The notes: generated by a model not told the origin, from the letters alone. Shown: positions 3,034 through 63,761, counted from the first letter of the stretch. The stretch is DNA of 64,000 nt from Botryllus schlosseri (GCA_051294905.1 CM119371.1:8000001-8064000); one strand, 5' to 3'. Made by a program: numbers and translations.

Positions 3034-4762
3034 TTGAACTAAGTAGCTTGCCAGGAATAGAGAAAGAACGTTCAACCATGGCAGTTTTTGTCTGGCAACA
3101 CTGAAGTTATGCGGACGCTGCTGGTGACACACCGTGTTGCTTCATTCTGACAATGTTGTATACAATGTAGACTCTACATGACAGGTTTTCTTCGTGCGAT
3201 TATTGATATAACAACCAATGTCCACGCCCACGCAGATATAACAACCAATGTCCACGCCCACGCAGTCTTGTTTTAGTTAGGATATTGCGGTATGTTGAGT
3301 ACAACACCATGTCAACCTATCTGTTTCATTTGAACTATTATGATTGAAAACGAGCAGACAACGGTATAATTATAAAGTAGGCTACAAGAAGTAAAATTTC
3401 TAATGATAAGTTCACCGACAGTGCAAACATCTACGATATCAACGAAATGCAGGTTGCAAAACATTTTGATTTTATAAACAATTTTGACAATTTTTTGACC
3501 TAACGCTACAATTTTGACATGCTAAAAAATTCGCCCTATTGATGACTAATAAAAAAAGACCATCCCTTCTCATCAAACCTCACAATCACGGCCTCATTGC
3601 CGACGATGACTTTTTTTAGTCACTGTCATTGGAATTTGGCACTGAATATGACATATCTGGACTACTATTCTTCAAAATCTATTGACATAACCCTCTTGCG
3701 GAACCCCTGCACAGTCTAGTCGGCACCCCAATGTGTCAGCATAGTGGTTGAGATCCCCTGCCATTGACGGTAGGCCCACAAGACTTTTGAAAACTACTGG
3801 ATGATTTTTAGAATGCGCCATTAGAATTTCTACTGGAACTATTCCATTTGCAACTATAACTATAACTATATTCAGTGCGGATTAAGTAACATATTGATTT
3901 TCCTTTTATCCTATATGGAAATCGGCTTTCCACATGACCTTACGTTCAAACGTGAAATAGTAGTGGTTATGAGCACAATCATCTCCCTCTTTTCTCTTAC
4001 ATCTGCACCTAAGACCAAAAAGAACTAGGGTCATAAAAGAAGGATAAACCGCCGGCATATCCTTGCGAAGCAAATCCGTCGGTGCAAAGTCAACGAGAAG
4101 AAACAAATAAAAACAACTCAAACAGCAACAAAACAAACCGATCTGGCTGCAACTTTATTAATGGGGGAGATTGGCAAAAGATCTGGCTTTTGACGGGCCG
4201 GGGTTTGGCGGGCCGCCAGAAGAGAAAAAAATGATACTAGCTCCGAAGAAATAGGACGTAATCTCTTCTCTGCCAGTCACCAAAGTAGCCAGTATAGCGA
4301 ACGTCAAATGGATAATGGATAAATAGCTGTTTGATGTTTATTTTTCATTGTGTGTTTGACATCAGCAGTTATGATGAACTATGCTTGACGAATAATATCC
4401 TTGTATGAATGTATGAAGGTACGAATGTACGAATTACCCAGATATGGACGGGCTACTTTCATCCTGGGAAGTTTTCAGACGTCGAACAAGCGAACATCAC
4501 CTAAGCGAAGTATAACTGAGTGAGTGCGCACTGCTCTCGGGGACACAACAATTTTGTCTCACGAATGTAATCAGCAGTAATTACTGCACCTTTCCTGTGT
4601 GTCTATATTTTGTCAAGCATCAACCAGCTCGGCCCTTTTGATTTTGAAGTGCGAAGTTTTCTGTTGGTAGGTTTGATCCGTGACTGTCGTTCCCGCAGTG
4701 ACGGCTGTGTAAGCAATTTGCGTTTTCTTGCAGATAAGACCGTGAAGTTGATTTTGATAGAG

Positions 4763-7700
4763 ATGTTACCTCATTCTGGAGCATTAGGGAATGCAATCGG
4801 CTCCAAGAAGCAATCGTCTCGTGAACCACAGGCAAATATGGGACAAAGCGCCCACGAGACTAGCGTCCTTTCTAAATGTGATGCTGAAGGTAAGATACGG
4901 AATGGCTTCGTCATCTGTAGGTAAAATTACTGAGGGTCAATACTTGACCCTTTGAATACTAGTTGAGGCGCAATAGGCTTGCTCATTGCGACCCTACCAT
5001 TAATTTCAGGAACTAATGTCGGGTATCGAACTCGTAAATCCGTTATCTTGGTGATTGACTGCCTTTATCATTGAACAGCTTCATTTCTCATTCTTACCTC
5101 CAACGCGTTTGTCCTACCCACCCTGTTGTGAAATGGCAAAGGTTACCAATCAGAATTAGTCAAATCGCATATCCGTACTTGCTTTATTCAGCGTAGTGTG
5201 AGATTGTTTTGAGCATCACCTCCACATCTCCTAGCAAAAGTCGTTGCTAAGTGCTAATAAAGTAAATCACCCATGGATATCGTAGGGTTAGGCGTCGTGG
5301 GTGATTGATTTCAGTGTCACCTCTGCATCTCCCATCCGAATTCGGTACTTATACAGTAAACCACATATGTATATCATAGGATTATGAATAATCAAATTAA
5401 CTCTGGAGGGGATTTGTAAGCATTTTGGAATTATCAGAAATTACCGGAGAAGGTTGTGTTCTGCCGTCATGAGCTATGAGGAACGACACGTGTCAGACAT
5501 CGTTTAAAGTATATAAAGTATAATAATTGGAAATTGGAGGCATCGTCCAACCTAGTCAACATCGAAATATCCTTTACCGGATATACCTCCATTGTGCACT
5601 TTTTTTTTATCCGTATTCTTGATCAACTTCGTTCGGTTCCGTTGCCTGCTCTGCGTTTAAATTTTGTTCTGTATCCTTGTCGTATTTGAGCACAACATAT
5701 TGAAGGAGTAATTTTGGTAGAGCCGTGAATGCCGTGATGGTCGCGGAAATCTGCACCTGTCAGCCTTATTAGTGTTCAACTAGCTCGTAGACTACTGCAA
5801 TCCCACTCTGGCCTAATCATCAGCTCTAGCAGGACACTTGATAATGCATACTATACAAGATACGACGCATGTTTCACTCTTGTGTCCACCAAGTGTTGTT
5901 CCTTCACTTTAATATCGTGGTGTATTATATAGGCACTTGGTGTCCATGACAATACTCGATATAAAATAAATGCAATTGTAATGGTGTAGATGTCACATCC
6001 GCCACTCATACAATAACTAGTGCATTTTTTGACATGTCACGAGTCAAGATTAGGTCAAAATTGTAAACATAGTCAACTTTATTTACAACCTGCATTTCGT
6101 TCGTATCGTATATTTTTCACTATGTAACTTATCATTTGATATTTTACAGCTTGTAGCCTACTTTATGGGCCTACCGTTGTTTTTGTAGCATCGCCTCCTC
6201 GTATTCTCTCCCTATTCCCCAGCTAGTAATTTTCCCTCTTACGTGGGAGTGCGAGCAAGTAATTAGTTCAGGTGGGGTTGATTTTGAGTTTTTGTAGCAT
6301 CGCCTCCTCGTATTCTCCCCCTATTCCCCAGCTAGTAATTTTCTCTCTTACGTGGGAGTGCGAGCAAGTATTTCCTTCCTTGATGACTAGCAAGTATTTC
6401 CATCCCTGATGACTATCAAGTCGAAGAAACGAAACCGACTTGTTGCGCCCATGCATGACTTTCGATGCGCTGTGAGCAAAGGTATACCACACATCGACCA
6501 GCTGGTGCAGGGTCGGCCAACCCGTGGCTTGCGAGTCAAATGTGGCCCGCGAGAAGATTTATGAGTGGTCCGGGAGACAATTCTCGAAATTACTTATAAT
6601 ATCAAATAATAACTTTTAATATCAAATAAAAAATTATTCAAGTCATTTACTGTGAACTTCCAAGACCAACCAAAAACTTGATAAGTCTGACCCCGAAATT
6701 TGGGATCTTGATGACTTAAATACCAGTTCGGACGCATTGGCGTAGCCAGGGACCAGAAACATTTTCCGTAGATCTCCCTATATGAACATAAAGTAGAATA
6801 TTTCGTGGTAGATTTATTTGAATTGATCTTTTTCTTGGCACTTAGCGCGATTTGTTGTCACTCAATTTCTTGCTTTTTCTAGCCCTTCCTGAATATAAAA
6901 ATACGCCCAATCTACTTAATTGGCTATATTGGCAATTATGAGAGAACGTGCCGCCCAACATCCGACTTCGCGTCTGCACTCGCAGAGATGATGAATAAGA
7001 TGAATATGATCGGCGATGAAATTTCTGCGCAAAATGCTAGACGCATGCTTACCGAAATCGTCGATATTCATATGTCCGAATAATCCTGTGTTTGCCAAGT
7101 GATCCCAGTGTTATACAGAGGTGACCCGCAATATATACAAGTGACATTAGTATTGGCCGAACTCATTCACTAACTTATGAAAAATTTTCGCGCTTGGCGC
7201 GGTTACTTCATGAGTGCACTATGCACACTGACTTTTCGTGACATAATTATTTTCGATTTTGATGCGTAGTAATATAAGTCTTGTTTTCATCATTACCTAA
7301 TCCGGTTCGCTCCTATATCGGGGGTGGCTAAAAAAGGTCATCAACATTCAAGTGGCCCGCGCAACGGTTGCAAATCTCATTTGGCCATTTGGTCGAAAAG
7401 GTTCGCCGACCCTGAGCTGGTGGAAAATAAGCAAATGCGGCCATCACAATAAATAAATTGGCCTTTGTTGTTTGTTTGTTATTAATTCATTACGTTGTTC
7501 TTCTTGTGACTGGTGGTGAAAAAATAATTCCATGCATCCAATCAGCCCTGACTGATGATGCCTAATTGAATAGAATTTGTTATTACACCTTGCATAGATC
7601 AAATCCGTGTCTATGACGTCATAAATGATAGAAAACTTTTTGACCGCCTTCGGCGCGCGTAACTTGTAGGTGGTACGCGAGCACTGCATAAAACCTCGAA

Positions 7701-10700
7701 ATGGTACGTGGGTAGAAAAAGGTTGGGAACCACTGTACTAACTGAAGCAAGACTGCGTGGGCATTGCATGTTTCTTATATATCAAAGCGCATGATGAAAA
7801 ATTGTGATGTAAACACGATTGTCAGAATGAAGCATCACGGCAGTCTACGCACAACTTCAATGTCGGCAGCCAACAACTGTTGCCGTTGAATGTTCTTTCT
7901 CCATTATTGGCAAGCTACTTCGTAAGGACAGACACTTTCTACCCGAGAATGGAGGGATATTTCTACAATTATGCGTGATGTAACTACTGGAATTTACCAT
8001 AGGTCCAGATTTTGATAAAATGAAGTCTTTCATGTAACAAATTGATAGTTTTAGTCCAAAAAAAAATTTTTTTTTAGGTCAAACTATTTTGTAATGACAG
8101 ACAATTCCAACCAGAAATGAAGGAAGTAGAACAATTGTAAGATTAAGTGGAGAAACACCTCGTCTGTATACGTTAGACAGTGGTTCCCAACCTTTTTCGA
8201 CTCATCTCCCCCTTTTGTAGCTCCACACCGATCATCGCCCCCCAAATATTGGGAACCGAAAAACTGCACTTCGTCAGCCCTCACCCCCCCCCCCCCATCC
8301 CCCCGAAAAAAATGTTGGACTTTGGCCTAATAGGGTGATACCAAACCCCAGACCCCTCTCAGCCAGTGGGCTTTTTGTCGCTACATATCAGCTATACCCT
8401 ATTTCATGTATTGTTTGGTGAGTCCGTATTTCGCCTAAACGCGCGAAGTGCGACAAATTTATATAATTCAGGCTTGAATCGGTCAATATGGTCGATGTGG
8501 TAAGTTGGAAAAGGTAGGACCCCTAAATAATAATTAAACATCTTCGGGCGGAATCGTTGTTATATTGACTTCTTTACATGATGCTATTTCGTGACCTCCT
8601 ATATCTGCTATATGTCAGAAGATATGGAAATCGTCAAAGCGTAACAAACTAAAAGACGCACATGATTTCATATTGGCATTTCTTTACTGGCAAATAATTT
8701 TTTCCTTGCGGGATGGCATTTGTCCTGTAGGGTTAAGGACGCCAGGACAGGAACATTCGACGCCAGCCATTGAGGCGCCTATGGACAATTAAACATATAT
8801 GTATATATATCGAAGTTTTCGGTCAGCATAAGGGCATTCTTTTTCGGCCAAGGTCTTCTCGCTGCTCATCGTTCTGGCACACTTCTCGAAGTCGCATGTT
8901 ATTTGGCCTCTAACTTCATATGTCTTGGTGCGTCGTGGCGCAGTAATGGCCGACGCCGAAGTCTTCTATTTCCATAAATCATGCGTATTTTTGTTGGGTG
9001 ATGCGGACCCCAACATCAAGATACATGAAAATATTGAATCGCGCGAAGCACGAAAAATTTTTGAAAAAGTCGCATGAATTTCTAAAATATTACTCTATCA
9101 TTCATGTTAATTCACGAGATAATTTTGGGCTTCCTTCGATTTCGGGCCGCTCACCCCCAATTGGGGGGTTTGGGGTGCGGTAGTTACGGTCCCGACTCCA
9201 ATATAGCCGTTTTAACGCGCCATCGCCCCCTATCGCCCCCTTTGTTGTTTTCGCCCCCTATCGCCCCCTTCGTCCGTTTTCGCCCCCCTATCGCCCCCTT
9301 CGTTATTTTCGCCCCCCTAGACCGCTAAATCGCCCCCTGGGGGGCGATATCGCCCACGTTGGGAACCACTGCGTTAGATCAAAATGTATTCAAATTGAGT
9401 TTTTTTGTGTCGAAAATGTCAAAATTTTGATCTTGTCTATCGAAATATTCCTTTTGTTAGGTCTACAAAATTGCTCAACTAATAAGTCGTCTAATTATTT
9501 CCGTTTCAGTGACCGTCTTTCACGAACCGGTAATTGATCGAACGAAAGCGAAAGGTGTAGATCAACTACATGCTCAAGTCGGGATTGATTGTGAGCCTGG
9601 GACTTCGAACGCAATGTCAGAAGTCTTCGTTCCAACAAATGAGGAATCTGGTAAAGCAGAGATTTGATGAGCAGTTGCTGATCACCCGCAAGCCCGTATT
9701 ATTATTATTATTAACTGATGCCGATGCATTTTATGTAGGCATACCAACGAACGCCTCCTAGATCTCCGACCTTGCAGCTACTAGTTGCTTTTAAAATATC
9801 ATCCTTTCAGGAAATATCCCACAGGGAAGCGATCAAAGCGAATGGAAAGACGATACTAAACCTGGTAGGGATAGCATCGACGGACCGTTGGATTTGCACA
9901 TTCCAGAACGTAATGGTATGCTTTCCGACACCGGAAACGTCCCAGTCACTCGATACTATACACTCCCTTTGTCGAGGACTTTTGTTCACTCCAGTCGCGT
10001 TCTGTGACGGCCTGTGTTTGAAACCCCGCCCTGCATTTTTGTCAGTGAATTGAGACAGAAGCTCAGCACGTAAAAATGATCTAATGGATAATATTCAGTC
10101 CTAATGTATAAAGTACATTTCCTATACTGCATCATAGTTCGCTTGACTACCGTTACGTGATCACCGGGACGTTGCCTATTTTCATACAACCTGTTCTTTT
10201 CCAATGAATAAAAAAGAGGGGTAGATCATATACATAGAAGTTGTACTGCTTACACAAGCGGCTCTGTTGTGTGACCACTTCCACTTCACCTCAGTATTTT
10301 TTGTGTAAAATATAAATTTCTAGATCTGTTTTTGTGGAGTAGAAGCTGTTCTAGGGTATGTTCGCATGACGATGACGTGTTTTCCGTTTCAGCGATCGTC
10401 TCGCACGAACCGTTATTTGATCAGGCGAACGCGGAAGCTGTAGAAGAACTGCCCGCTGAAGTTGGGACTGATTGTGAGCCTCGTGCGACGAGCGTAATGT
10501 CGGAAGTCTTGGTTCCAACAAATGAGGAATCTGGTAATGCAAAGTGTTAACGTGCAGTTACTGACCAGCGACCACCCGCAAGCCCCGTGTTATAGTTGCT
10601 AATGCCAATACGTTCTATGTAGCCATACCAGATAACGCCTTTTGAATCTCCCGACGTTACACTTACTGGTTGCTTTTAAAATGCCATTCTTACAGGAAAT

Positions 10701-13700
10701 ATGCCGGATATACCCGGGAGTGATCAAACTGAAGAAAATATTCCGGATAAACCAGGAAGTGATCAAACCGCATGGACGGACGGGCCTGAACCTGGCACGG
10801 ATAGCAACGACGGACAATTGGATTTGCCTGTATCGGGAAGTAAGATAATGCCTACCGTCTTCACTAGCTATTAAAGGCGGCCCGTGTTTGAAACTCCGCG
10901 CTGCATTTTAGACGTTGAAAGAGACGGACGTTCGTCCCACATGACATTCATCCATTAAGGATTAACTATTCCTAATCCATTAATTGCACTTCCTGTATTG
11001 CATCATGATTCGCTAGACTACCGTTGTGTGACCAATTTTATTTTGCCCCTTTCAAAACGTAGCCTACTCTGCTGTTTCATCAAGTAAGGAAGACAGGGGT
11101 ATTTCATACATAGAGGCTGCACAGTAGGGCTGTTCAAAAATAACCTTTTTTCCTTAATCTTGCGGGTTACTTGATTAAATCGTTAGGTTGCCTTAAAAAA
11201 CGACGCACACCAAATTTGAATTCATTCCAACCAATATTCGCGGATTTCGTAGAGTTTGAAAATTTTGAACTTGCCTAAAAATGCAAAAAAAATTTTTTTT
11301 CCAATTTTCCTTCCAACCTTATGAAATTGTTTCACTGTCTTCAAAAACGATGCAAAACAAATTTGACTCAATTCCAAGCTGCAGAAGCCGAGTTATTCAA
11401 GTTTTTTGATGATAATTCTGGGATGATCCACCAATCAAGTATAATCCCAGAATTATCAAAGAAAAACTGAAATAACTCCACTTCTACGGCTTCGAATTGA
11501 GTCAAATTTGTTTGGCATCGTTTTCGAAGACAGCGTAACAATTTCATGGGGTTGGCAGAAAAATTTGAAAATTTTTTTTTTTGCATTTTTAGGCAAATTC
11601 AAAATTTTCAAACTCTACGAAATCCGCGAATATTGGTTGGAATAAATTCAAATTTGGTGTGCGTCGTTTTTTAAGGCAACCTAACGATTTAATCAAGTAA
11701 CCCTCAAGATTCAGGAAAAAAGGTTATTTTTGAACAGCCCTACTGCACAGCCTACATGGGCAGTTATATTGTGAGACTACTTCACTCTTTTGTAATTTAA
11801 ATCATCAATTGTTAAATCTTTGGGAAGTAACTTTTGTAATTTAAATCATCAATTGTTAAATCTTTGGGAAGTACGGCGTAGGTAAAGTTCTGGGATACCC
11901 CGTTTGCATCTCTTCTACGAATGAAATTGCCATACCAATTAGGCAAAACAGCGCTGTAACATGCAAACTGTATAAAGTGTTATTCGCGAAGATGCACTTG
12001 GCAATTCGGAATATCGCCACAAACTACTTTAAAGTAGGTGAGCACTCGACCGAATCTACTCTTCAGCACTGCACACTTGAGTATTTCTTGTAACTTTCAT
12101 TTAGTACTTCTACTTGAAGTAGTTTTTACATGTCTTTGAAGTCGCAACATGTAGGCCGACTTGGTAATTGAATGGAAATTTCCGGCTTTCATTCCATTCG
12201 ATATGCACGCTATTTTGACCACTTGGCATATCGGTATATCAGCGTGGGCGGAATTACGGATACCTGGTTCACTCGTCCGTTAACCTTTTTTGGCACCGTG
12301 CGTAATGTTATACATCGCGACATGTTCCGTTTGGTAATTGTGATCCGGTAGAACTTGCAGAAACTTTCGACCACGCCCAACATTTTCACAAATAGTCTGG
12401 CGTCACGTCATCGTATAGCTACGACGATTCCAAGGCGTGGTACTGTGATTTTTATATCTTAACAGAAGTATTGGGATTGCCTCCTGTACATAATGAGGCT
12501 ACAAGAGATTCTGGTTTCCAAGAGCTCCCTTGTGAACCCGACACTGAATTGAAAGAGGCCGTGGATTGCGGGTTGGGTAGCTCTAAGGATGTCAGTGTCG
12601 TTGCTCCGGCCAGAGGTGAAAGTAAGCTTGTATTCGATAAGCGTACCACTGATATTCGTCAACGTTCCAGCAGCTCCTGGTATCATGGACACTGCATGTT
12701 GCCCAAGAGCAACTATACTGCCGTTAAGCTAAATCCGGTCCTTGATACCCAAAAGGCCTAATCGTAACTGAACGCATGTCATCTATTGTTTGGAGATCGG
12801 TTAGCTGCTTTGAAAGTTCAGTCGCTCACCATATTACGGTCCCTCGCTGCATTGCGCTTTCGCATTTGTGCTTCCAGTGACGAAGTGTAATATCGCAGGA
12901 CGGCACAAAAATACATTGATCACATTTTCTACAGTGGTCGTATTGTTCGTGGAGTTACTATTGAAAACGCACCCACTTCATTGAACAACGCGTTGCCACA
13001 AATCTGAGACAATATCTAAATAAGCTCATTTGATTCTATATGAAGCATGATTTCCCACCTTTCGCGAAGTAGGATGAATAAAGCATTGGACCAATTTTCT
13101 ATCAACTTCCATCGCTTATACATTATACTGAAAAAAAACAAGACTTAGGCCTACTTACACACATTTTCCCGCCCGTCTCTTGACTGATTGACAAGGGAGC
13201 AATATCGTACTCTTTAAGTTGCAAGTATTTTCCCCTCCGTCTCTCGACTGATTGACGAGGGACCAATATCGCCCTGTTTGGGAACCACCGACTGGGCCAT
13301 ATGTTTGCTTGCTCTTGGGAGATCGCTCAACCATTCAGGAAAAAAAGGGTATTCAATTGTTCTATTGTTACAGATGATTTTAAAAAGCCTGTCGATGCGT
13401 ACGATGATGTCGAGGCGCAAGTGAAAGAGATGCCCTCTGGATGTAAACCGCAGGCGCGAGTCGAAACGTCCGTGAAAAATGAACCAGGGGACGCGCAGGA
13501 CGTCGACGCGGACCATATTCGTGATAGTAAGCCTCGTTATAGACTCGAATGTTGCCAGAGGTGGCCAATGTAGTTACCGTTGCTTCTCAAGTACAGTAAC
13601 GGAGAACTTATACTATAATAATTTATGTTGCTAATACTAAAGTGTTTTACACTACTTCACGTCATTGGTCTTTTTACCTCACTTCATTGGTATTTTTACG

Positions 13701-16402
13701 GTATCGTTGCCACCTCGGATTGCCACCTAAATTCTACACGCAATCAATCCTTCGATCAAATCTGCGTTGCGATGGACGTAGCATTGTAGTGTAATGTCAA
13801 TGTAGACACTGTAGGCAGCAGCGTCAATTTATCTTGATGCATAGCGGTACATTTAATTCTCGCGCGCTTGAGCTTGACACGTGGGTATTTGAAGAAAAAT
13901 GAAACTAGGAAGATCGCTTTTCGTTTCTTCTAAATTCATTCGTTTCTTCCTCTAAATTCACCAAGGTTATCACGGAGCCCCGAATGCTTTCTCACATACT
14001 CCCCCCCCCCCCACAAGGAGGCCGTGAACCCAAGAGCGAGCGCCTTAGACCGTCATTCTTAACTTATACTCCATAGTAATTCGCAGTTCTTCCTGTTTAT
14101 TTCTATCGAAATATGACATGTCTCTGCAAATGCTGCAAAAGGATGCATTGTCGGATTTTACAATCCTTTCACTCCCGAAAATGGTGCGAGTCTGTCCAAA
14201 CAATACTTACACCTTAATGCAACGAAGAGACGACATTGAAAAGTAAAATGTAGCAATGAAGTATTGAAGTAATGCAATGAAGTAAGGTAAACTTGTGCAC
14301 AGGTGGTTAGTAACGATGTGCTATTTTTTCCGAGGTAGGTGTTGCCTACTCGAACTGGTTGAAGGAGCTATGATTACTAATAGGTTTTACAAACTTAAGT
14401 TAGCGATTGGGTTTTGTGATACGTTTTTATAACCAAATTGTCCTAGGAATGGCATGGAATTGAAATAGCCGATTTATCCATTCTGCAAAAAAGACTGTAG
14501 TGAAACGAGTCGGTCCTGTTGCCATTCTCATGCGTATGAGGATGAAGCCTTTCGAGCTGACATGAGCTGAATGTGATGTTTGTTGTATTTATTTCATAAT
14601 TCAATATTTAATTCCATTCTCAAGTTTGAGTGAATTGCAAGTGTTGGCGAATTCAGTAATTACAATGTTAAGCCTAATTTGGAAGAAAATGTAATTGGTG
14701 TATTACAGTGGTCGGGAACCTTTTTTGTCCGAAGAGCCATATTGACGCTATATTTTCCTTTTGATCTCCCAAAGAGCCATACATTTCTGCCAACTATTAC
14801 GTCACAATTGAAAAGTCGTGACGTCATCGTAGCGCAAATTCGAAAGCACTACTTGGGATTCGTCGTTTGTACCGTATTTTTTCTGTAAAAACTCGTACTA
14901 ATCATGCTGGTTGCCTTTATTTGAGTAAGAACTATACAAAACTTGAGTTACATAGATCTTTTGCAAGTTATCTATTTTTAATTGTATTGCACTGAGAGGC
15001 ATATCATATTTTTCGAAGCTTAAGACAATTACCTTTTAGATTTCCAACAGACGTAAACAACAGTAAAAGTATTAATCTACTTTTTAAACAGTTTTACCCA
15101 CATGTCTGCACTAGATTTTGAACATTTTTACTGCCAAATCACGCAGCTTGCCTATTTATTGTTCGAAAATAAAGTGTAAATGGAGAGGTAAGGCATAGGT
15201 GAGGCACAGCCGGGCGATGCCTTACCTGTGATAGCGCAATTCATCGCAAATATAATTTAATAACCGATATTAATCGAATTTAATTGTCGCATTGATTCCG
15301 ATTCGACTTCTCAATTCTCAAAGTATTCGGCGATAACATAACGTTGCGTCACACGCCTACATTTTAACAGCGACTACAAAGCTACGTTATCAAGAAAGTG
15401 GATAGCTATGGCGTTTTTTATAATTTGAATTTGTAATTGTGAATGTCACTTCAATGTCACAATGTGTATTTGAAAACTGCATTGTGATATAGGTGCCGCC
15501 ACATATCCTACTCTCGTTGATGAATCAACGTATCGTGCAATCCAAGATTTCGGGGCGGGTACATCGAATTCGGGAGTGATATTGGTCGCTGGCGCGACAG
15601 CAACTTAAATTTAAGGATTTTGAAATGGGGGTCCGATCCCCTAATCCCGAGTATACCTCCCCGAATATACCACTGTATTAAACTCTCACAAAGACATGTT
15701 TATACTGCCACAAGAATAAGTATACTGATCGTGCTGAAGATTTAATAACAAGTTGCTGCCATATAGATAAATTGAGCACAAAAATAAAAATTTCGCAAAG
15801 AGCCATATCTTATGCCCAAAAGAGCTATATATGGCTCGCGAGCCATAGGTTCCCGACCACTGGTGTATTAGGTCTGTGTACGAAGCCGTACCGTCGAATT
15901 CTTGGTTGATTACGTTATATTAAAGTCTAATTCTAATCCATTGGGAATGCAGAATTTTTCAAGTCTCTTTCTTTTTCATGAACCCCTTAGAATAGTCCTT
16001 GAGCCCCACGCGGTTCGTGCACGCCAGGTTAATAACGTATGAAGTAGAATTACTTCGGCAAAAAAGCCTATCGGAGGGTTAGGTAATATTTATCGCCTTG
16101 CGATTGTCGGTTTTAGACTATCGGAGGGTTGGGTTATATTTATCACCTTGCGATTGTCGGTTTTAGAAAACGATGTGCCGAAACCCGACCAGGGTAATGA
16201 CGCAGGGTACTTCCACAAGCTCAAGAACAACGGCCCTGTCCCAAATACCGTCGAATGTCCGCCATGTAATACGGCACGCATAGTTTATGCAGTGTTCCTG
16301 TCGATGGTGGTCTTTACCGCGATCTATTTTGCGTTGGAAGACGACGAGGAGCAGGAGGGCTCTTCTACCGAAAACAGCACCCAGCGTCTAGGAAGTGGCT
16401 GA
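4763..16402 (+). CDS. Gene A: uncharacterised C-terminally anchored single-pass membrane protein (317 aa, 6 coding exons)
   Basis: Exons 4763-4889, 9510-9650, 10393-10533, 12466-12621, 13374-13526 and 16167-16402. All introns are GT..AG and phase 1, and internal exons are 141/141/156/153 nt. The join is 954 nt with no internal stop (MLPHSGALGNAIGSKKQSS...TARIVYAVFLSMVVFTAIYFALEDDEEQEGSSTENSTQRLGSG*). One hydrophobic segment near the C-terminus; AATAAA at ~16480. Paralogous to genes B and C. Further small exons cannot be excluded. Confidence 0.75.
6508..7414. mobile_element. hAT MITE nested in another MITE
   Basis: TIRs CAGGGTCGGC/GCCGACCCTG; perfect TSD agctggtg. The empty site is seen in the related host element at ~45663. 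Confidence 0.9.
8178..9371. mobile_element. hAT MITE (with internal insertions)
   Basis: TIR CAGTGGTTCCCAAC at both ends; flanking direct repeat cgttaga; subterminal TCGCCCCC repeats. A short relative lies at 30924-31110. Confidence 0.85.
11125..11742. mobile_element. Palindromic (fold-back) MITE in gene A intron 3
   Basis: Near-perfect inverted arms of ~300 bp starting TAGGGCTGTTCAAAAATAACC; perfect 8-bp TSD ctgcacag; absent from the paralogous intron (~10235). Confidence 0.92.
14706..15862. mobile_element. hAT non-autonomous element
   Basis: TIR CAGTGGTCGGGAACC; perfect TSD gtgtatta. Confidence 0.92.
16068..16166 (+). promoter_or_regulatory. 50-bp tandem duplication of the gene A terminal-exon splice acceptor
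   Basis: ctatcggagggtt...ttgcgattgtcggttttag occurs twice; AGs end at 16116 and 16166. Confidence 0.85.
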
Positions 16403-19400: not shown

Positions 19401-21336
19401 CCGTACTTTTAAAATGCTGATTTCTATCTCCAACATTGTTTCATTTGCAATTCAGTAATTCGTCTCATCCCTAGTTAGTTCGGACTTTAGACTAGTTAGT
19501 TCCGGATTTTCAAATGTCGTTAGTTCAAGTTACAGTTCTAGCTGCTCATTTTGAAAATACAGAAGTTTGTAAAATTTACCTGCAGATATTTACATACTGG
19601 CAGCCTACGTACTGCTATAAGTTTGAGGCGGTGGTTCTTGATCATAGAACAAAAGATCAATATATAACTAAGCTATCATTACAAGTTAACGTCCGACAAA
19701 ATCCGTTAAATATCGAAATTTACTTTCGCGCAAAACGAGAACGACGAGGTTTGCTACATGTTTTAATGAATGTAGTATTTATTAAACTTCGTGTCAATGA
19801 ATTGTACTTAATTTTTGGTGGCGAAATGCCCTTAATAATACTACCGTCATGCGAGCTCGGGTTATTTTCCACAAAATGTCCGAACTGGGTATTGTATCCT
19901 GCAGCACACATCGTGTCGAAATGGTAGAGGCATTGTACCACTTTTGAGAGTCAGAGCTCATTGTACACGAAATATGATTTGAAGATTCCTGGTCAAAATG
20001 ATAGCTAAGTAGACTTGTATTTGAGAGCTACTAAATCAAATCGTCAGAATATTTCTTTATCATATCATAAAGGATGCTATCTATCGTTTAGTGTTTTGAC
20101 CCACAGCCTCACATGAACGTTTTATAATGTAGGTTGCCTTGTTCGGAATAAATTCATGTTGAATTTAATAACTAGATGTATTGCTAAATTCAATGTTAGC
20201 AAAGATCTCTACCCCATTGTGAGTTGATTAACTAGTCACACAGAGCATAAAAAAATTGCAATACAATTAACTTCCACATACTGCCAATAGATGTTAACCA
20301 GATGGTATGAGCCAGTGCCCGATGGTTATTACAACGACGTTGACTTGATCCCGGATATAGCAGGCTTTTTTGTTTGTTTGTTTGATATTCACGGTGTTTC
20401 GTCTACATTGGTAATCCCAGTGTTGGGATGACTCGAGTCACCTTTTCCGTATGACTTGACTTGACTCGAGTCACTTTGCTAAAATAACTTGTCTTGACTT
20501 GACTCGACGTATGTATCAGAAATGTGGATTGACTCGTGACTCGGAGCAGAATTCGACATCACAAGTAAGCAAGCCCATTAATTTAACGAAAGAAGACCTT
20601 GAAATGGAGGAGATGGAAGGAAAACACCATAGAGTTCATTGGCACAAATCTCTATAGTCTCTTGAACTGGCACGTTCGTGAATAAACTAGATATATCAAA
20701 CGAACACATAGAGATATCGGACACATCGAAATCAACATTACGAATGGTATCAGCAAATGTGAACGAGTCACGAATTCAGTCGCAACAATGTGAGTGACTG
20801 ATGAAAATGGCGTTCCAATTGAGTGCTAAATAATTCCAAGTGTAGGTTCGTCAATTTCACGCTCGGGTAGGGAAATTTATTTTAACTGACCATTTCTATC
20901 GGGGTACCTTGAGTGATTAATAATTTATTGGTTATTTGGGGTTATTGTACGGATAAGTTACGGACTATCAGTATGTTTAATTGATTGAAATAGAGTGTGC
21001 CAAGCGGTCGCTCGAGACAGCTATATTTCTGTCGTTCAATTCTGGTGCCACTCAAACGACCGAAACGACAGTTTAAAATGTGTAACTAAAGTTTTTCATC
21101 CAGATCAGCTGTCGGGTAGTTGATCTAGACCAGTCGGGATCTGAATTATTTGACACCGGATGAGAATCACTTTTCAAATACCTACATATAACACAGAGTA
21201 AATGTATATGTATGAACATTGAATACTATGGGTGAATCCGCGTACAGCTCTGCTAGGTTGTCTGTACTAGCGAATTTGAGGACTGTCTGTTTTGATTATG
21301 ACCTATATATGACTTCTCGCGCTGGAGCCACCCCGC

Positions 21337-21413
21337 AGTTAGTCCAGCGAAATAGTGGTCATCATGTCCGCCTTACACGCGGAAGGTCATGGGTTCGATA
21401 TCCAGCGGAACTG
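21337..21413 (+). pseudogene. tRNA-Val(TAC) pseudogene
   Basis: Paralogue of 22092-22164 with the same cccgc leader. Anticodon arm TCCGC-CT TAC AC-GCGGA is intact, but the 5' acceptor strand/A-box is disrupted and the T-stem is mismatched. Confidence 0.75.
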
Positions 21414-21755
21414 TCTCCATTCATTAGCCTACTCTTCAAAATCTTGTTTGTGTCGAAGCCGATGTGGATAGAGTATCAGCAACACTACACAGACGAAACG
21501 GAAAACATTATTTCGAAGAACGCTCACACTTCTTCATGCACTACTGGTTATCAAATATTAGGGACAAATCTCCGTTACCGAAACTAGATTCTCGTCCGAT
21601 GGCCAAAGAAAATTATAATTTAGTTTGAATCCTGCAAGGTGGCATGACATCTGCTGATAAGAGCCAAGGGAAAGTTTTGATGAATCCAGTTTTAAAATGC
21701 CACATCGTTACGTTGAAATCTCCCTCTCCAAATTACGAAATCGGAATGGCAAAAC

Positions 21756-21822
21756 TGCAGCGACCCATGGCTTCACCAGGGACCTTTATATATTCAGACT
21801 ACGCCGACTGAGTTATCGCGGC
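21756..21822 (-). pseudogene. tRNA-Phe(GAA) pseudogene
   Basis: Reverse complement aligns with 63706-63778 but has a D-arm deletion and a mutated T-loop (GGTGAAG). Confidence 0.75.
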
Positions 21823-21830
21823 GATGGAAG

Positions 21831-21904
21831 TAACCAGATCTGGTCTCGAACCAGCAACATTCGCGTTATTAGCACGACGCTCTGACCAACGGAGCTGACC
21901 GATC
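21831..21904 (-). tRNA. tRNA-Ile(AAT), degenerate (likely pseudogene)
   Basis: Minus strand GATCGGTCAGCTCCGTTGGTCAGAGCGTCGTGCTAATAACGCGAATGTTGCTGGTTCGAGACCAGATCTGGTTA. Anticodon arm intact; acceptor stem is mostly G-U pairs or mismatches. Confidence 0.65.
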
Positions 21905-22091
21905 TGCGTTGAATGCCGTCGAAGATTCCGAACACCTTCCCGTTTTTTTACGAAACACTTTAAACTAAAACGACATCGATGAGGTATGCAGTGTAGATGG
22001 TTGATCCCGTGACGTCATACATACTTCGTCGATGGGACGACATCTACTATTACGAGAAATTATTTGGGAGGATGCATCCAGTAGGTCCCGC

Positions 22092-22164
22092 AGTTCCGTA
22101 GTGTAGTGGTCATCACGTCTGCTTCACACGCAGAAGGTCCTGGGTTCGAGCCCCAGCGGAACTA
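22092..22164 (+). tRNA. tRNA-Val(CAC)
   Basis: 73 nt. Acceptor stem AGTTCCG/CGGAACT, anticodon arm TCTGC-TT CAC AC-GCAGA, GGTTCGAGCC T-arm, TTTTT terminator at 22175-22179. Confidence 0.92.
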
Positions 22165-22211
22165 CTTCTAACTATTTTTATAAGGTATGTAGCGTTTAAT
22201 CGCATCGCAAG

Positions 22212-22605
22212 TAGTACCCGACCGATATCGGATTTTTGTGCCGATACCGATAAAACCGATATCTTCAGCCGAAATTCAGAGAAGGTGGAATCTACCTCAA
22301 AATACGCATTTTCAATACTTCAGAGCATTTATTTTTATTTACAGCTTTACAGCCATTGTCACACATGAACAAGAAATAAACTAGAAAGGGTGCATCTGGA
22401 CACCTTGAAAGTGTAAGAAAAATGGAATGTAGCAATGTTCCCTGTCTAGCGGTCAATCATTATAGTTTTCTGACTTCCTACCATCATGTTGTGACGTAAC
22501 AAAAATTGCCGATATTTTTTACCTCCAATGGCCGATACCGATTATTCTTTGATAGTGTAATATCGACTCGATATTATCGGCGAACCGATAATAGGTCGGG
22601 CTCTA
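22212..22605. mobile_element. MITE with CCGATA subterminal repeats
   Basis: Ends TAGTACCCGACC/GGTCGGGCTCTA; degenerate TSD atcgcaag/atctcgag. Confidence 0.7.
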
Positions 22606-23120
22606 ATCTCGAGTTCCAATGTTCGCATTCCAAATGACTTCCATCATTTCCCATCAAGTTTGGGCTGAGATAGATAGCGACTGAACATTTTATAAAGGTC
22701 TGAGTTCCAACGATTCTGAGACATAGGCTACACCATACAGGTACTTTGTGTCTCTCTGTCTGTCTGTCTTTCTATACATCAACATACCAGTCTGTTATTT
22801 ATCTGTGCGGATTTTTGATGAAACATCTTCTACTGGATCGCGACCAATTCCGATGTTGAGCGCGAATGATACGGATTCTGCTGCTTAGCCTTACAATCAC
22901 AACCGATTATAAAATACACAGGTTACCAGACTTTTTACAGCGCGATACGTATATGAGTTTTAATGCTGTCTTACGACCAAAGCCTACTAACTTTGATGAA
23001 TTTGTTGCTCGATTACCCCTATATATCACTGAAATTGGCGATTAGATCGCAAGCTCCAGCGCATTTCTATACGTGATTCACACACACACGCACGCACGCT
23101 TATTTCCACAGCGAGCTAAG

Positions 23121-23426
23121 CAGAGATGGGCATGGATTAGGATTAGTATTGGATTTACCGATTTTCTGGAAGATTGATATGGCGACAAACTTTATTCAGA
23201 TAAGGTATTGGTGTACTTACGGTACACTACACTATGGTACACTCGGTGCCAATGAATGAATATGAGAGGTACTGGTGGCTTTTGGGGTGGGCGAGGTGGG
23301 CGGTCGGATAAGGATTTGACATGGATTTGAATATATAAAAGTTATGGATCAGGATTTGGATTAGGATTCGAAGCTTCGGATTTGGATTGGATTAGGACAT
23401 GGAAATTCCAAATCCGCTTATCTCTG
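23121..23426. mobile_element. MITE with GGATT repeats
   Basis: Ends CAGAGATGGGC/GCTTATCTCTG; absent from the paralogous region at ~54120. Confidence 0.75.
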
Positions 23427-23967
23427 AAACCAAGCCATATATCACGCGATCACGAACGGGCCGGAACAGGTTGGCCGAACTTCAAACGTAAGATCCATTT
23501 ATTTGTTCCTATTGACTTTCTTCGCACCAAACCCGCAAGTATTATTATTATTAGATATCGGTAAGCAACAGCTCTCCGGACGTCCACAGCGTGAAATAAT
23601 TTCGGCAATGACATATATTCATACTAGAATTACTAATATTTTTAGTACTCTCTTAGCCCACGTCCTCAGATACATTGGTGGAGCTGATGTAGGTCGTGTG
23701 TCGAAAATCTAGGGCACGTAAATATAGATCCTGATTGAGTCGCTTGCCTGCGTAACCCCTTTTCTGGACGTCTCTCTTATTGCCTATGTATAGTTTGGCC
23801 AAGACATAGTACTTGGACATTCATAATATACCCACAAGAAATCGTATGAAACGGGTGGAAATTTATTTGTTTGGGTACAGACCCATAATGTAACAAATCC
23901 TGTTATAATCGATGAATGCTGGCGATGTTATTAGATGCTGCATGTGGTGACAAGATATTGTGGCCCC

Positions 23968-24195
23968 GTTTCGCCTGCACCATCGAGATGCTCTGACGAC
24001 GGAGATGCGATACGGCCTTTATATTAAGATCATCTAGTCTGCACCCCCATTTTTTATCCTCCATGCTATCCGTGATTGCTGAGCGCCTAGCACGATAGCC
24101 GCGGATACCAGTTTTCGAGTCTTTGGTCTGACCCGGCCGGGGATCGAACCCACGACCTACAGATCGAGAAGCCGGACGACCACTATCTCGCTCGG
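23968..24195 (-). mobile_element. tRNA-derived SINE (central domain resembles MetaSINE type)
   Basis: B-box GGTTCGATCCC followed by gggtcagaccaaagactcgaaaactggtatcc...gcgctcagca. The 3' tail is repeated at ~32483-32530. Absent from the paralogous region at ~54590. The family assignment is from memory and unverified. Confidence 0.75.
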
Positions 24196-24498
24196 TATAT
24201 AAGAACTCGGTATTGTGAATGGGCATTGCTGAGCCGAGTTCAAATTAATTTAGCTAGACTACACGTGCCCATTGGCACAGCGGTCGTTTGTTGGACTAAT
24301 CGGTGTTCCAGTCCGTCTTGTAATGATTATTATGTAACGATTGGCGAGTGCACATCGTCAATGTACATTCTTAAGCATTCCAGTGCTCGAGTAGACGGAG
24401 ATATTTTACTGCTACAATCGGTTTTATTTGGAAATTGTGATATCGCATGTCTTCTTGCAGGAACAATTACTGCCGTTGAACAATTGCTGCCGTTGAAC

Positions 24499-27400
24499 AT
24501 GCCTGGTCCATCAGAAGAGAAAGGAGATACAATCTCCTCTAAAAAGCAATCTGTTTGTGAGCTTTACCAGGCGAGAACCAGGCAAGGACATGTCAAGGTT
24601 CCCATGATTCCGGGCATTAACGGTATGGCATAGAATTGATTACTATACTACAGTAGCTGTAAAGAGTTTCCTAGCTAACCTTGGATACGTCATGATTTAC
24701 TAGTTGCTTTTCGAATATTATCCGGATTGGATGCCGAGCAGAAAGTAGGAAGACAGATTTGACTAGATCTGACATCTTTTGGAGAATCAGTAAGCCTACA
24801 TGCAGTTTTCGACCTATACTTGAAAGATGGACGGATATGTGCAACTCCTATCGTAGTAGGGGCTGGAAGAGAAAATTATCCGGATTTATGAGATTGTTTT
24901 GTATATGTCCTTCGAAACTAGCGAAGCTAGTTTGATATGTTGTGCTATGATAAGAAAACCTTCATATAATACCATTATCGTCCAGGATTCCATCTTTGGC
25001 GATTAGGGAAATTCGTGTCAGGCTTAAAGCCAGGTCAAAACTAACTAAAGAGAGCAATGGCGGCGACTGCAAAGCGCCGTGCGATATCATTGTATGGATA
25101 AAAATTCCACGTTACAGCCGTTTATGCTATCCGATAAAGGGATGTTCGTTAACGGTAAAGCGGGACTTACGTCTGATTGCCGGTTACACTCCTTTCTTTG
25201 GGAGTGTGTGTTCTTATGTAATTGTTCTAAACAATAAACATTCGTGACTGGACAGCGAGTAAGGGCGTGTGATATACTTACGCGCTTTAGATTCCGAGGT
25301 GGAGAAGTCCGTTAAATTTTGAGAGGCTCAGCCCGCAAATACGGAATCACGTGATTGAATGATTCGGGGCATATTTTATTTCATAATTCTGTCGTTTCAG
25401 ATGAATTACCTCCTCCATATAAGGAGGCTTGTGGTTCTGGATTCACAGAGATCCCGCGAGACACCGAGCCTCGAGTGATGAAGCCAGCTGAAAGTGAGCC
25501 TGGGAGGTCGCAGGATTTCAATGCCGTTGTACCGGCCTGTGGTCAAAGTAAGTTTGATGTCAATTCTCGTACCGGTCAGTTAAAAGGTGGTGAAGTATTC
25601 AGCGTTTCAACTCAAGTGGAAGTAACGCCGCAGATTTCTACACAATTCAAAGTAAACGTATAGTTATACCAAATTCGTGTAAAATCTACTTCAGATGGGA
25701 GTCTCCCAGGTATGGTGAAGGTACTCGCAGTTGATAATGCGGCAGTGTTGGGATGACTCGAGTCATGACTTGACTCGAGTCAGACTCGAGTCATCTTTTT
25801 CGTATGACTTGACTTGACTCGAGTCACTTTGCAAAAATGACTTGACTTGACTTGACTCGGCGCTTCAAAAATGCGGATTGACTCGTGACTCCGAGCAAAA
25901 TTTACGAGTCAATTTCAAGTCATCAAGTAAACCGTGTCGATCAAATCACTGTGTCTTGTGCATGTTCGGATTCTTCACGATACGCCGGTGTCACTTGTGA
26001 GATCAACCAGTCGTTCACTGATTGCACATTTCAATGGACCTTCATTGCCACGTCACAAATAAACTGACAGCAAACGAAATGATCACAGCCTGCGTTGTCG
26101 TAATGGTAGTAGGCTATTAGATGAATCTATTATTAGCAGGGTCTGTCCTTACATTGCACAGTACCCAACGTTACCAACCCTCTTGTATGATTTAAATCGA
26201 ACGAATATAGTTTATGCGTATATATTTTCACGGATGTGTAGATGGTTAGTAGTGTATTGTACGATATCAATTTATTTCAACTTCTCGAGGCTTGGTATAC
26301 GATCCTCTATTTTGGCTGATAGTAACAAGTAACAGAATGAAGCATGTAGCGCAGAGTTGTCAAACTTAACTGACGTCACGGGCCGGATTCAAACATTCAG
26401 ATCACTCGCCGGGTCACACCAGTCAAATGATTCCAAAATATTAGCAACTCTTAAATCAATATATGCACTATTTCGTATTCTCGGAATTGGGTGTCAATGC
26501 CAGCAATTTACTCCTGACGATTTCAACTGCGCTGTCGGGTGGTAATAATGTGGCCTATGAACATGCTCGACATTTGCTATCCTGAAGGAATATTTATGAG
26601 AAGTATTTGTTACTACAAATTCGAGAAATGTGCTATATAAAATACCCCAATTTTTCATTCTCTACTCAGAATTGCTTCGCGGGCCGGATGAAATCATTTG
26701 GCGGGTCGTATGTTTGATACCCCTGATGTAGCTATGCAGTTACTGACGAATTTTATAAGAGTTCTACGTGTGCGTGAGCGATACAACTCGATTTGCCCGT
26801 ATATTTAATTCTAAATTCGTTATTTTATTCAAGACGGCCAATTAATCTATCTAGCAACAAATCTAGCAAAATGTTATGACTTTAAATGATCACTCATACT
26901 TAGAAATTTCAATTTGACTTGAATTGTGACTTGACTCATGACTTGACTTGACTTGACTCGAGTCACCTCCAAAAAACGAGTGACTTGACTTGACTCGAGT
27001 CACCTTCAAAAATCGATTGACTTGACATGACTCGAGTCAAAATTTGCAATGACTCGAAATGACTCGTGACTCGAAGGTAGTGACTTGATCCCAACACTGT
27101 AATGCAGTACAGCGCTTCTCAAACATTTTGTATGCGCGTACCACTTCGAGAATTCTTACTGAGCCCCCGTGTTATATCGTTATATTGACTGGAAAAAAGG
27201 AAATTTACTCAAACGTGCTGAGAGCCGCTGTTTCAGTTGGATCACCGGTTAATAGTACCGAATAGTACCAGTTTGACACAAGTGGTTTGCTGCGGAGGTA
27301 AGATTTGGTACGGAGTCTTTTAAAAGTGCGGCAAGTCTTGATAATAATTTATAATCCTCGAGACATCAAATTGCCCGAAGCGAAGGATACTCTTTCAGTA

Positions 27401-28911
27401 GTTTGATATATCCCTAATTAATACTTTGTGCAATTGTTGTAAAATAAGCTTTACGAGCTTTAGGGAGTAGAAGTGTCTCTTTCGCCTTGCGCCGCTGTTT
27501 TACGTTTGATTAATTTTAACCACGGGCCGTAATTGAGCCACTAGCAATCGAACTCACTTGTTTGCTTCTACCATTAGGTCGTTACTACATTGAAGATTCG
27601 CAGTAACTGGGCACATGACGCTTTTTTGCATCACATGTGCAATCTAGTTTTGGTAGCCGCAGCGCTACTTGGACAAAAAGTAAAATAGAATGCTTGATAT
27701 CCATATTATGTTTTCAATACATATATTTATATGTTCGCTAAAGTTACTAGCGTACCACTTTAGATGTGCCCGCGTACCACTACTAGAACGCGTACCATAG
27801 TTTGGAAACCACTGCTACAGTAGAAGTAACGTCATGAATTTATACCAAATTACAAGTAGAAGTAGACAAATTTTTCCAACAGATGCCAAAAATGCCTGAA
27901 GTGTAAATCGAATGGGAAAGCATGAAAAGTGTGGGACTGAGCAGTTTCGTAAAGTACATCGGTCGCGTCGCACATATGTTAGATAGTTGGTCGGAATGGG
28001 CTACAAATTGTTAGACCATCATCATCATCATCATTGGTTTATTAGCAATTTTTATCAGTTCAGTGCACCACAAAAATGCGATACAATGAAACGATAAGGG
28101 GTGTCGAAGCGACTTGGAGTAGTCTATGGAATCAGACTCCCACCTTGGATGTATCTTTTTTGACTTCGTCATTGACGCATAATGACAAATGCCACTACAA
28201 ATAGGTGGAATTATTTATAATACGATGAAGTTATCGTGATACAGGAGATATTTTGCCGTCTTGGTATGACAATTTCATTCATAAATGTTATACAAACATC
28301 TCCCGCAAACTACTTCCTACGACGGATTTTAGTAAGTAATGTTGCATAAACTGTAAGTAGAATTGGAAGTAGACTAGAACATAATCCAATCGAGTCGGAA
28401 GTGGAAGTAAGGTTAAATTACATAAGCCAGTATAAACGTATATTGGCGCTTTCATTTCAACTTGTAATGTGTATGAGTGACGGTGTTATGCTCATGTGTC
28501 TCGTCCGCAATTTCGAACTGTTCCGATTTTGCGAGTGGTTTTGACGGCGAAATATTCTACCTCCAATGTCGTAATACTGGAATTATATTTAAGCACGTGT
28601 TGATTCCAACGAAGGCAATTTAATTCAGCGGCTGATTATGTTGTCTGTTGGTTAAGTTGTATTCGTAACTCTTTCGACAATGAATGTTTTAAGGCGATGA
28701 TCTGCCGGAACCGGATCCGACCATCGAAGAAGTTCGCGGCGACACTCCTAAACGTGTGAAGCCGAAGTTATCGACGATTCTGATGTTAATCCTGTTTCTG
28801 GTTATAATCGTTGGCGTACTCGCTATCATATGGAGCGTCGAACGTCCATCTTATCCGTCTTATATTATCGATATATTGACCTCGTCTAACCGATCCCCAC
28901 AAAGTGGCTGA
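24499..28911 (+). CDS. Gene B: uncharacterised PPxY-containing C-terminally anchored membrane protein (162 aa, 3 coding exons)
   Basis: Exons 24499-24622, 25401-25547 and 28694-28911 with phase-1 GT..AG introns give a 489-nt open frame: MPGPSEEKGDTISSKKQSVCELYQ...DELPPPYKEACGSG...KRVKPKLSTILMLILFLVIIVGVLAIIWSVERPSYPSYIIDILTSSNRSPQSG*. AATAAA at 29061; splice acceptor at 24460 upstream of the ATG. Confidence 0.8.
25743..27099. mobile_element. hAT-like element with GACTT/GACTC subterminal arrays in gene B intron 2
   Basis: TIR CAGTGTTGGGAT; TSD taatgcgg/taatgcag. Partial copies at ~20418-20560 and ~51110-51690. Confidence 0.9.
27110..27814. mobile_element. hAT MITE (CGCGTACCAC subterminal motif)
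   Basis: Ends CAGCGCTTCTCAAAC/TTTGGAAACCACTG; degenerate TSD atgcagta/ctacagta. Confidence 0.7.
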
Positions 28912-63705: not shown

Positions 63706-63722
63706 GCCGCGATAGCTCAGTC

Positions 63723-63761
<39 letters not shown>

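Follow-up and report, generated by a model that had tools for sequence, protein, structure and literature searches.

A tandem array of putative tail-anchored membrane proteins with variable short motifs in the genome of Botryllus schlosseri

We analysed a 64,000-nt stretch of the Botryllus schlosseri genome (GCA_051294905.1, CM119371.1:8000001-8064000, from an assembly of 495.5 Mb; henceforth the window, G+C ~41%) and found that it contains part of a tandem array of short, intron-interrupted genes, whose predicted products are small proteins with a single membrane helix close to the C-terminus. A first-pass annotation of this stretch had noticed three paralogous first exons with the signature G[ND][AT]I.SKKQS and interpreted them as a family of membrane adaptors; these exons are present at 4763, 24499 and 55010 on the + strand (copies A, B and C, respectively), and a search for further paralogues showed the family to be real and to comprise eight tandem copies. 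It is very probable, from the properties of the predicted frames, that the array is a true protein-coding family. The interpretation that we favour, with about even confidence, is that these genes specify small tail-anchored, motif-bearing membrane proteins; that their cytosolic part acts as a docking strip is the less likely component of this view. All positions below are window coordinates, with those smaller than 1 or larger than 64000 lying in the flanking sequence. The gene models are predictions from genomic DNA alone, in which exon coordinates were read from the sequence and the frames were then computed.

The model for gene A joins four + strand exons (4763-4889, 12466-12621, 13374-13526 and 16167-16402) into a predicted open frame of 223 aa, and that for gene B joins three (24499-24622, 25401-25547 and 28694-28911, +) into one of 162 aa. 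In both models all introns are of the GT-AG type, all junctions are in phase 1, the summed exon length is divisible by 3 and there are no internal stops, in agreement with the complete phase-1 frames that had been proposed for these two genes. The donors are mostly GTAAG and the internal exons are symmetric (phase 1-1) and 147-156 nt long. The first exons of A, B and C, of 127, 124 and 124 nt, each stop in phase 1 ahead of a GT donor (GTAAGA, GTATGG and GTATTG, respectively) and have in common M, S, G, I, SKKQS, QA and Q columns. The single second exon of B (147 nt, phase 1-1) contains the stretch LPPPYKEA. Gene A has two modules of this type, namely exon 2a (156 nt, phase 1-1), with LPPVH at the position of the LPPPY of B, and exon 2b (153 nt, phase 1-1), a diverged version with AYDDV. 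A remnant of a third module (14003-14023, +) reading PPPHKEA, for which no usable splice sites were seen, is probably a decayed duplicate. The last exon of A specifies a membrane-adjoining CPPC, the helix IVYAVFLSMVVFTAIYFAL and an acidic tail of 21 aa with the sequon NST, ending in SG-stop; that of B specifies DDLPEPDP and KRVKPK, then the helix (protein residues 116-139) and a tail of 23 aa with NRS, again ending in SG-stop. Thus the single transmembrane (TM) helix, the tail of about 25 aa with its N-x-S/T sequon and SG end, and the KRVKPK just ahead of the helix of B are all found as the first-pass annotation had described them. An AATAAA lies 78 nt past the stop in A and 150 nt past it in B.

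With regard to the ends of these genes, all eight ATG exons of the family are preceded by a pyrimidine tract and AG at 24-50 nt upstream, and in four copies (A, G, E and F) a donor-like GGTAGGT precedes the tract by some 60-90 nt, an arrangement suggestive of a very short intron in the 5' untranslated region (UTR). In A the tract and AG end at 4733, and the first coding exon may hence start at 4734; in B the corresponding start would be 24461 if the candidate upstream acceptor is used. The upstream sequence is conserved within pairs of copies, at 77% between A and G and 75% between B and C (A 4573-4762, B 24199-24498, C 54710-55009 and the flanking copies). At the other end of A, a 50-nt tandem duplication (16068-16167, +; two copies in perfect register) doubles the acceptor of the last exon. 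Splicing at the upstream copy, as read by eye, meets an in-frame stop at once, and the duplicated acceptor could therefore cause mis-splicing.

The copies were located by tblastn searches with exon peptides, over 164 kb, and by profile scans, over 244 kb. The array consists of eight + strand copies spanning about 150 kb (-18929 to 131743), with first exons at -18929 (U), 4763 (A), 24499 (B), 55010 (C), 71126 (E), 85823 (F), 114276 (G) and 126396 (D), of which A, B and C are inside the window. Complete open frames of 155-223 aa are present in six of the eight (U, A, B, E, F and D), with D, E and F having three-exon frames of 159, 162 and 155 aa and the same phases as A and B. There are eight exon-2-type modules in total, A contributing two besides its decayed third and G one besides a degenerate second, and five last exons with the sequon and terminal SG-stop (A, B, E, F and D). 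Since the copies U, E, F and G were included in the profile hidden Markov models, their profile e-values are circular, and the independent support comes from pairwise tblastn matches: exon 2 of D against that of E (6e-9), the last exon of B against that of D (2e-14), exon 1 of A against G (4e-8) and exon 2 of E against U (5e-4). The relationship of exon 2a of A with exon 2 of B was recovered in a blastp comparison with an e-value of 1e-8. Besides A, B and C, the remaining five copies repeat the exon order and phases, and random stretches of 124-218 nt of the region are free of stops in only 4-12% of cases, so that the resemblances exceed what chance would give. Two copies are clearly incomplete. 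The frame of G hits a stop in a satellite-invaded module and the copy is without a membrane exon. Copy C is a first exon only (55010-55133, +), within a partial duplicate that takes in exon 1 of B, the region ahead of it and 560 nt at the start of intron 1 (24211-25182 against 54723-55693, 68% identity); neither an exon 2 nor a last exon was found by tblastn and profile scans between C and the next copy at 71126.

Single-exon searches of the whole genome recovered no convincing match outside the 150-kb array, which indicates a local tandem family rather than a dispersed repeat. The last exon of B drew in 87 weak genome matches (e-values of 0.055 or greater), which cover the helix part only, many of them with stops, and these we dismissed as repeats or noise. 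In copy U we observed two tandem terminal exons (-11009 to -10729 and -9123 to -8828) with 49% mutual identity, each with a strong acceptor in phase 1, and each specifying a strong helix preceded by a CC pair and a sequon-free tail. The frame of U is complete with either of them, and they may serve as alternative last exons or represent a second kind of tail in the family. An open reading frame (ORF) at 301-408 was also considered as the last exon of U and rejected.

The predicted proteins with an SG-type tail (A, B, D, E and F) each have one strongly hydrophobic segment, with a 19-residue hydropathy of 2.24-3.37, whereas the maximum within the first 48 aa is at most 0.07, in keeping with the earlier view that a signal peptide is absent; the second-best segment anywhere in these proteins reaches at most 0.49. 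An AlphaFold2 model from the last-exon alignment places a helix with confidence over residues 25-48 of B's 71-aa last exon and is of low confidence elsewhere. The part before the helix measures 109-183 aa, has a net charge of -4 to -13 and is 66-76% polar or disorder-promoting. The tails that follow the helix are of 21 (A), 23 (B), 20, 31 and 24 aa. All ten N-x-S/T sequons of these proteins fall within the tails, which make up 119 residues, and the remaining 742 residues have none; shuffling gave an expectation of 0.7, or of 2.9 if the tails alone were shuffled, and none of 20000 shuffles reached ten, though this test overstates the independence of the five sequon-bearing tails as they are paralogues. 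There are one to four sequons per tail, and in all five proteins the last of them lies 13-25 residues past the helix, followed by 2-5 residues and SG-stop. The lysines and arginines within 15 aa of the helix, summed over the five proteins, number 15 on the N-terminal side and 5 on the C-terminal side. Taken with the confinement of the sequons to the tails, this makes a cytosolic N-terminus probable, as had been proposed from the positive-inside rule. Cysteines occur in the 20 aa that precede the helix in A (two), D (one), E (two) and F (two), with none in B, and U has the CC pair.

The tail-anchored class is described as having a single TM helix which, owing to its nearness to the C-terminus, exits the ribosome only at termination (PMC5702047). 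We took a limit of about 30-40 residues or fewer after the helix, and the family proteins have no N-terminal hydrophobic segment and a single helix with 20-31 aa following it. At such a short distance from the stop codon the co-translational route is closed to the helix, and the sole hydrophobic segment would hence be inserted post-translationally, as in the tail-anchored class, for which GET/TRC40, EMC or similar routes serve. Short C-terminal sequon tags placed on tail-anchored proteins are described as being glycosylated once inside the lumen of the endoplasmic reticulum (PMC3198503). Tail anchoring, with a glycosylated tail on the exoplasmic side, thus seems likely to us.

The short motifs that had been pointed out, namely PPPY in B, PPVH and YDDV in A and VLYQAI in C, are all present in the sequence. 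In an alignment of the exon-2 modules the tyrosines of the PPPY of B, the PPRY of D, the IYEDV of F and the AYDDV of exon 2b of A fall in one column, which has tyrosine in four of the eight modules, histidine in three (A exon 2a, U and the first module of G) and cysteine in one (E); in the modules that bear the tyrosine it is followed by [DEK]-[DE]-[VA]. The PPxY of B and D is kept despite 50% divergence of the two proteins at the amino-acid level, with the x residue changed, and the chance occurrence of a PPxY is about 4% per shuffled cytosolic part. At the N-terminus an SKKQS/PKKQS core is present in five of the eight copies and S-x-x-Q-S in six; K-K-x-S resembles the site of basophilic kinases. 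Scans of the genome gave 38 matches to WW domains and 61 to SH2 domains, and the many exons for these domains point to signaling of the animal type. The pY-D-x-V motif is a ligand of Nck-type SH2 domains; SLP-76, which the first-pass annotation had named loosely as a binder, itself carries such motifs and does not bind them. One of the suggested motifs fell away: the ITIM-like VLYQAI occurs only in the fragment C, the equivalent stretch being ELYQAR in B, VRYQAN in D and VVFQAN in U, and C is without a membrane-coding exon, whereas an ITIM would be a conserved [IVLS]-x-Y-x-x-[ILV] in a membrane receptor.

In the interpretation that we favour, the eight duplicated genes would encode fast-evolving proteins of 155-223 aa. 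Exon modules with phase 1-1 boundaries would make up their N-terminal part, which is acidic and polar and probably disordered; a single TM helix follows, and then a tail of 20-31 aa, which has one to four sequons and the SG end in five of the six complete copies. The N-terminus would be cytosolic and the C-terminus exoplasmic and probably N-glycosylated. The cytosolic part would then present short linear motifs, tethered to the membrane in the manner of a docking strip: the PPxY of the B/D subgroup could recruit ubiquitin ligases of the NEDD4-type HECT class, while the aligned tyrosine of A, B, D and F, in its acidic Y-[DEK]-[DE]-[VA] context, could be phosphorylated or could be part of a YxxV sorting signal. 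Palmitoylation is possible at the membrane-adjoining cysteines of A, D, E, F and U. Of all this, the sequence itself shows gene structure, paralogy, kept frames and the indicators of topology, whereas glycosylation, palmitoylation and all binding partners are inferred. The docking-strip role as a whole, with a NEDD4-type ligase recruited by the PPxY of B and D and an acidic tyrosine motif in A, B, D and F, is one that we advance tentatively and regard as less likely than not. More doubtful is the still more specific proposal that these are cellular transmembrane adaptors of reversed topology, tail-anchored and with an N-glycosylated miniature ectodomain ending in a conserved N-x-S/T...SG, whose docking strip is made of phase 1-1 modules that are duplicated and swapped among the tandem copies and change their motifs, some having PPxY and others an acidic tyrosine motif. 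Of the original idea of adaptors that switch motifs between paralogues, the retention of PPxY in B and D and the shared tyrosine column stand; the idea does not extend to the majority of the modules, from which PPxY is missing.

Several observations weigh against this interpretation. PPxY is absent from six of the eight exon-2 modules (A exon 2a, with its PPVH, A exon 2b, E, F, U and the first module of G), and the aligned tyrosine is replaced by histidine or cysteine in four of the eight. The cytosolic part of E has no tyrosine at all, and that of the other complete genes only one or two. In D the lysines and arginines flanking the helix are balanced, with three before it and three after. The two candidate last exons of U have neither a tail sequon nor an SG end, and no similarity beyond the helix was detected between U-type and SG-type last exons (hhalign probability of 6%). 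Finally, the constraint on the amino-acid sequence is weak: dN/dS (Nei-Gojobori) is 0.80 for B-D (dS of 0.40) and 0.79 for E-F (dS of 0.23), the deeper pairs being saturated; the values for individual exons spread from 0.40 to 1.55, with few sites each; and the E-F exons, at an identity of 0.842, are no closer to each other than are the aligned parts of their introns, at 0.855.

One alternative is that function resides in the helix and the tiny glycosylated exoplasmic tail, with the cytosolic motifs being incidental. The proteins would then be accessory 'micro' proteins that serve receptors, channels or transporters as single-helix subunits or as regulators, or else surface tags that bear glycans and evolve under diversifying selection. 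Conservation is indeed broadest for the helix, the terminal N-x-S/T and the SG end, which are found in five of the six complete copies including A, which is only 31-34% identical to the others, and E and F have four and three sequons, respectively. Between E and F, pN/pS is 1.24 in exon 3 as against 0.40-0.42 in exons 1 and 2, which would fit diversification on the outside, but the counts are small. However, U has neither sequon nor SG end, and the S-x-x-Q-S core of exon 1 and the core of exon 2 remain recognizable in all eight copies, which argues for a cytosolic function too. On this evidence we regard a function confined to the helix and tail as rather unlikely.

Another alternative is that the copies arose recently and are in decay or were never translated, being pseudogenes or exons of non-coding transcripts whose frames are open for lack of time. 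The dN/dS of about 0.8 in both close pairs, a sign of fast amino-acid evolution, would fit such a history, as would the divergence of the E-F exons to the same degree as their introns, the incomplete copies C and G, the decayed third module of A and the failure to find homologues in any library searched (see below). Against it, six frames are open over three to four exons, with conserved GT-AG sites and phases. The exon lengths differ by 0, 0 and 9 nt between B and D and by 0, 9 and 12 nt between E and F, all in multiples of 3, whereas 72% of the gaps in the E-F introns are not (104 gaps per 5484 aligned nt, of which 29 are multiples of 3). At that intron rate simple arithmetic predicts about six frameshifting gaps in a coding sequence of 468 nt, and none is seen; the gaps that blastn places in the E-F exons are of 1, 3, 3, 6 and 8 nt, the smallest and the largest of which add up to 9. 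Under simulated neutral substitution a frame stayed free of stops in 12% of the runs at the divergence of E to F, but in only 1.9% at that of B to D and 0.2% at that of B to A. Moreover, exon 2 and the last exon with the 3'UTR of B and D can still be aligned by blastn, while their introns cannot, apart from one block of 111 nt, and their first exons are 71% identical without gaps as against 58% in the adjoining intron. Sequon, SG end and helix are kept even between subfamilies with saturated dS, and an AATAAA is present within 160 nt past the stop in four of five genes (A, B, D and F, but not E). The conserved frames, splice phases and in-frame indels in the face of rapid amino-acid change look like those of real coding genes, and it would appear that selection kept the frames open, in protein-coding genes or in very recently dead ones. 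That the copies are decaying or untranslated seems to us less likely still than a role limited to helix and tail. The alignable B-D intron block (28194-28304 and 130745-130854) lies in the last intron and is 77% identical amid intron sequence that does not align; as an extra exon it was rejected because no frame is free of stops in both copies, and it may be a regulatory element or the remnant of a repeat.

The least probable alternative, although compatible with the others, is a combinatorial locus in which alternative promoters or splicing mix phase-compatible exons (for example exon 1 of C with exon 2 of E, the exons of G with those of D, or U with two alternative last exons), for which speak the uniform phase 1 of all coding exon boundaries, the open frame formed by exon 1 of C with exons 2 and 3 of E, the intact frame and donor of C in front of no downstream exons of its own, the strong phase-1 acceptors of both terminal exons of U and the tract and AG ahead of all eight ATG exons, and against which stand the own stop of each complete copy and own AATAAA of four out of five, the shared upstream sequence of the duplicate pairs, as expected of separate promoters, and the distances of 11-22 kb to be bridged, which exceed every intron within a unit except the first of A.

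Searches for relatives were conducted exon by exon. A Pfam scan of eight family exons yielded nothing above the cut-off. Exon 2 of B, compared with the longer proteins of a 5.8-billion library, gave 24 candidates, none with an e-value of 1 or less, and the 8-sequence exon-2 alignment retrieved no relative among the 8000 candidates scored from the longer proteins of the same library. A profile of the last exon run with hmmsearch against 1.84 billion representative proteins had no hit at an e-value of 0.001 or less. Against profiles of the PDB, exon 2 had no matches and the last exon only helix noise, with e-values of 0.15 or greater, and the best score of the last exon of B in the ESM Atlas was 0.81, which is in the noise range. 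Scans of metagenomes with exon 2 returned nothing, and the two metagenome matches to the last exon cover only the helix and were rejected as hydrophobic noise. As a control, an ORF of the window with an ANC1 homology domain (AHD) had a single relative in the libraries, at 48% identity; the libraries thus seem to be without this organism or its near kin, and the blanks are correspondingly weak evidence. With this proviso, the earlier statement that no known family could be recognized holds for Pfam, PDB and the two very large protein libraries, and by exon-wise search the family appears to be unrecognized among described protein families.

The closest parallels in layout are found in proteins of other origins. 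The herpesviral tail-anchored PPxY proteins (HSV UL56, VZV ORF0, HCMV UL42 and HHV-6/7 U24) are described as binding Itch/NEDD4 and as small proteins that lack a signal peptide, carry PPxY in the cytosolic N-terminal part, have one helix, at the C-terminus, and show very low similarity to each other (PMC5849660). On that description B, with PPPY, and D, with PPRY, share their layout. However, the Botryllus family is cellular, intron-containing and tandemly arrayed, PPxY is limited to two of its eight modules, and its tails are longer (20-31 aa) and bear sequons; the Pfam scan of the exons detected no sequence similarity to the herpesviral adaptors. In the same source, NDFIP1/2 and other cellular PPxY adaptors exemplify how a membrane-tethered PPxY recruits or activates HECT ligases (PMC5849660). 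The family differs from the NDFIPs in having one helix, no detectable homology and a PPxY confined to a single subgroup. Three membrane helices and conserved orthologues across animals are typical of the NDFIPs.

A second comparison is with the transmembrane adaptors of immune cells, such as LAT, PAG and LIME, of which PAG is described as having 16 extracellular aa (PMC2213442) and LIME as an immune transmembrane adaptor (PMC2194117). As far as these accounts go, such proteins expose very little on the exoplasmic side, cross the membrane with one helix, and combine palmitoylated membrane-adjoining cysteines with a disordered cytosolic part that bears tyrosine motifs. The short tails of 20-31 aa and the cysteines on the cytosolic side in A, D, E, F and U resemble this arrangement. 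In contrast, the predicted topology of the family is reversed, the N-terminus being cytosolic, the cytosolic tyrosines number zero to two as against several, and there is no sequence similarity. The short N-terminal ectodomain and long C-terminal cytosolic part with multiple tyrosines that typify the LAT/PAG class are accordingly not found in the family. By sequence, then, it would appear to belong with none of the herpesviral adaptors, the NDFIPs or LAT/PAG/LIME. Among small tail-anchored proteins of the cell surface, SMIM1 is another with a single helix, reported to be tail-anchored (PMC7953501). The family shares the small size and single helix and has a tail long enough for conserved sequons. 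We know of no sequence relation between the two.

Several other features were noted in the window. Between copies B and C lie two paralogous ORFs on the - strand, at 34245-34904 (219 aa) and 49009-50421 (470 aa), both of which end in the AHD (Pfam, e-values of 6e-8 and 1e-7, above the cut-off) and lie within a segmental duplication (33056-39009 against 47837-53544, 82-85% identity). The longer one, whose best library relative is 48% identical, contains an internal tandem duplication of about 440 nt (49343-49626 against 49787-50070, at 97%). Two transfer RNA genes on the + strand, tRNA-Val(CAC) at 22092-22165 and tRNA-Phe(GAA) at 63706-63778, score 67 and 69 bits with Rfam and are also called by ARAGORN; a weak tRNA-like match at 21831-21904 (-) scores 30 bits and has no ARAGORN call. 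In intron 1 of A a 28-29-nt tandem repeat of 3.3 copies (9223-9319, +) reads as a proline-rich ORF (9184-9537), which looks like simple repeat and was discarded as a gene. An ORF of 118 aa at 61718-62074 (-) presumably resembles the C-terminal end of a LINE-type reverse transcriptase; Pfam has no match to it at an e-value of 1 or less.

Orphan tandem families are common in animal genomes, which limits the value to be placed on any one of them, and short multi-exon genes of this type are easily missed. If the present family is expressed, it would join, without recognizable relatives, the few natural tail-anchored proteins with a glycosylated exoplasmic tail. It would also be a natural experiment in which PPxY and an acidic tyrosine motif are exchanged at one aligned position between tandem copies, illustrating the turnover of short linear motifs on a fixed membrane scaffold. 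Were the proposal of adaptors of reversed topology to prove true, the family would be a host-side counterpart of the herpesviral UL56, UL42 and U24 proteins, diversifying as fast as genes of immunity and recognition do.

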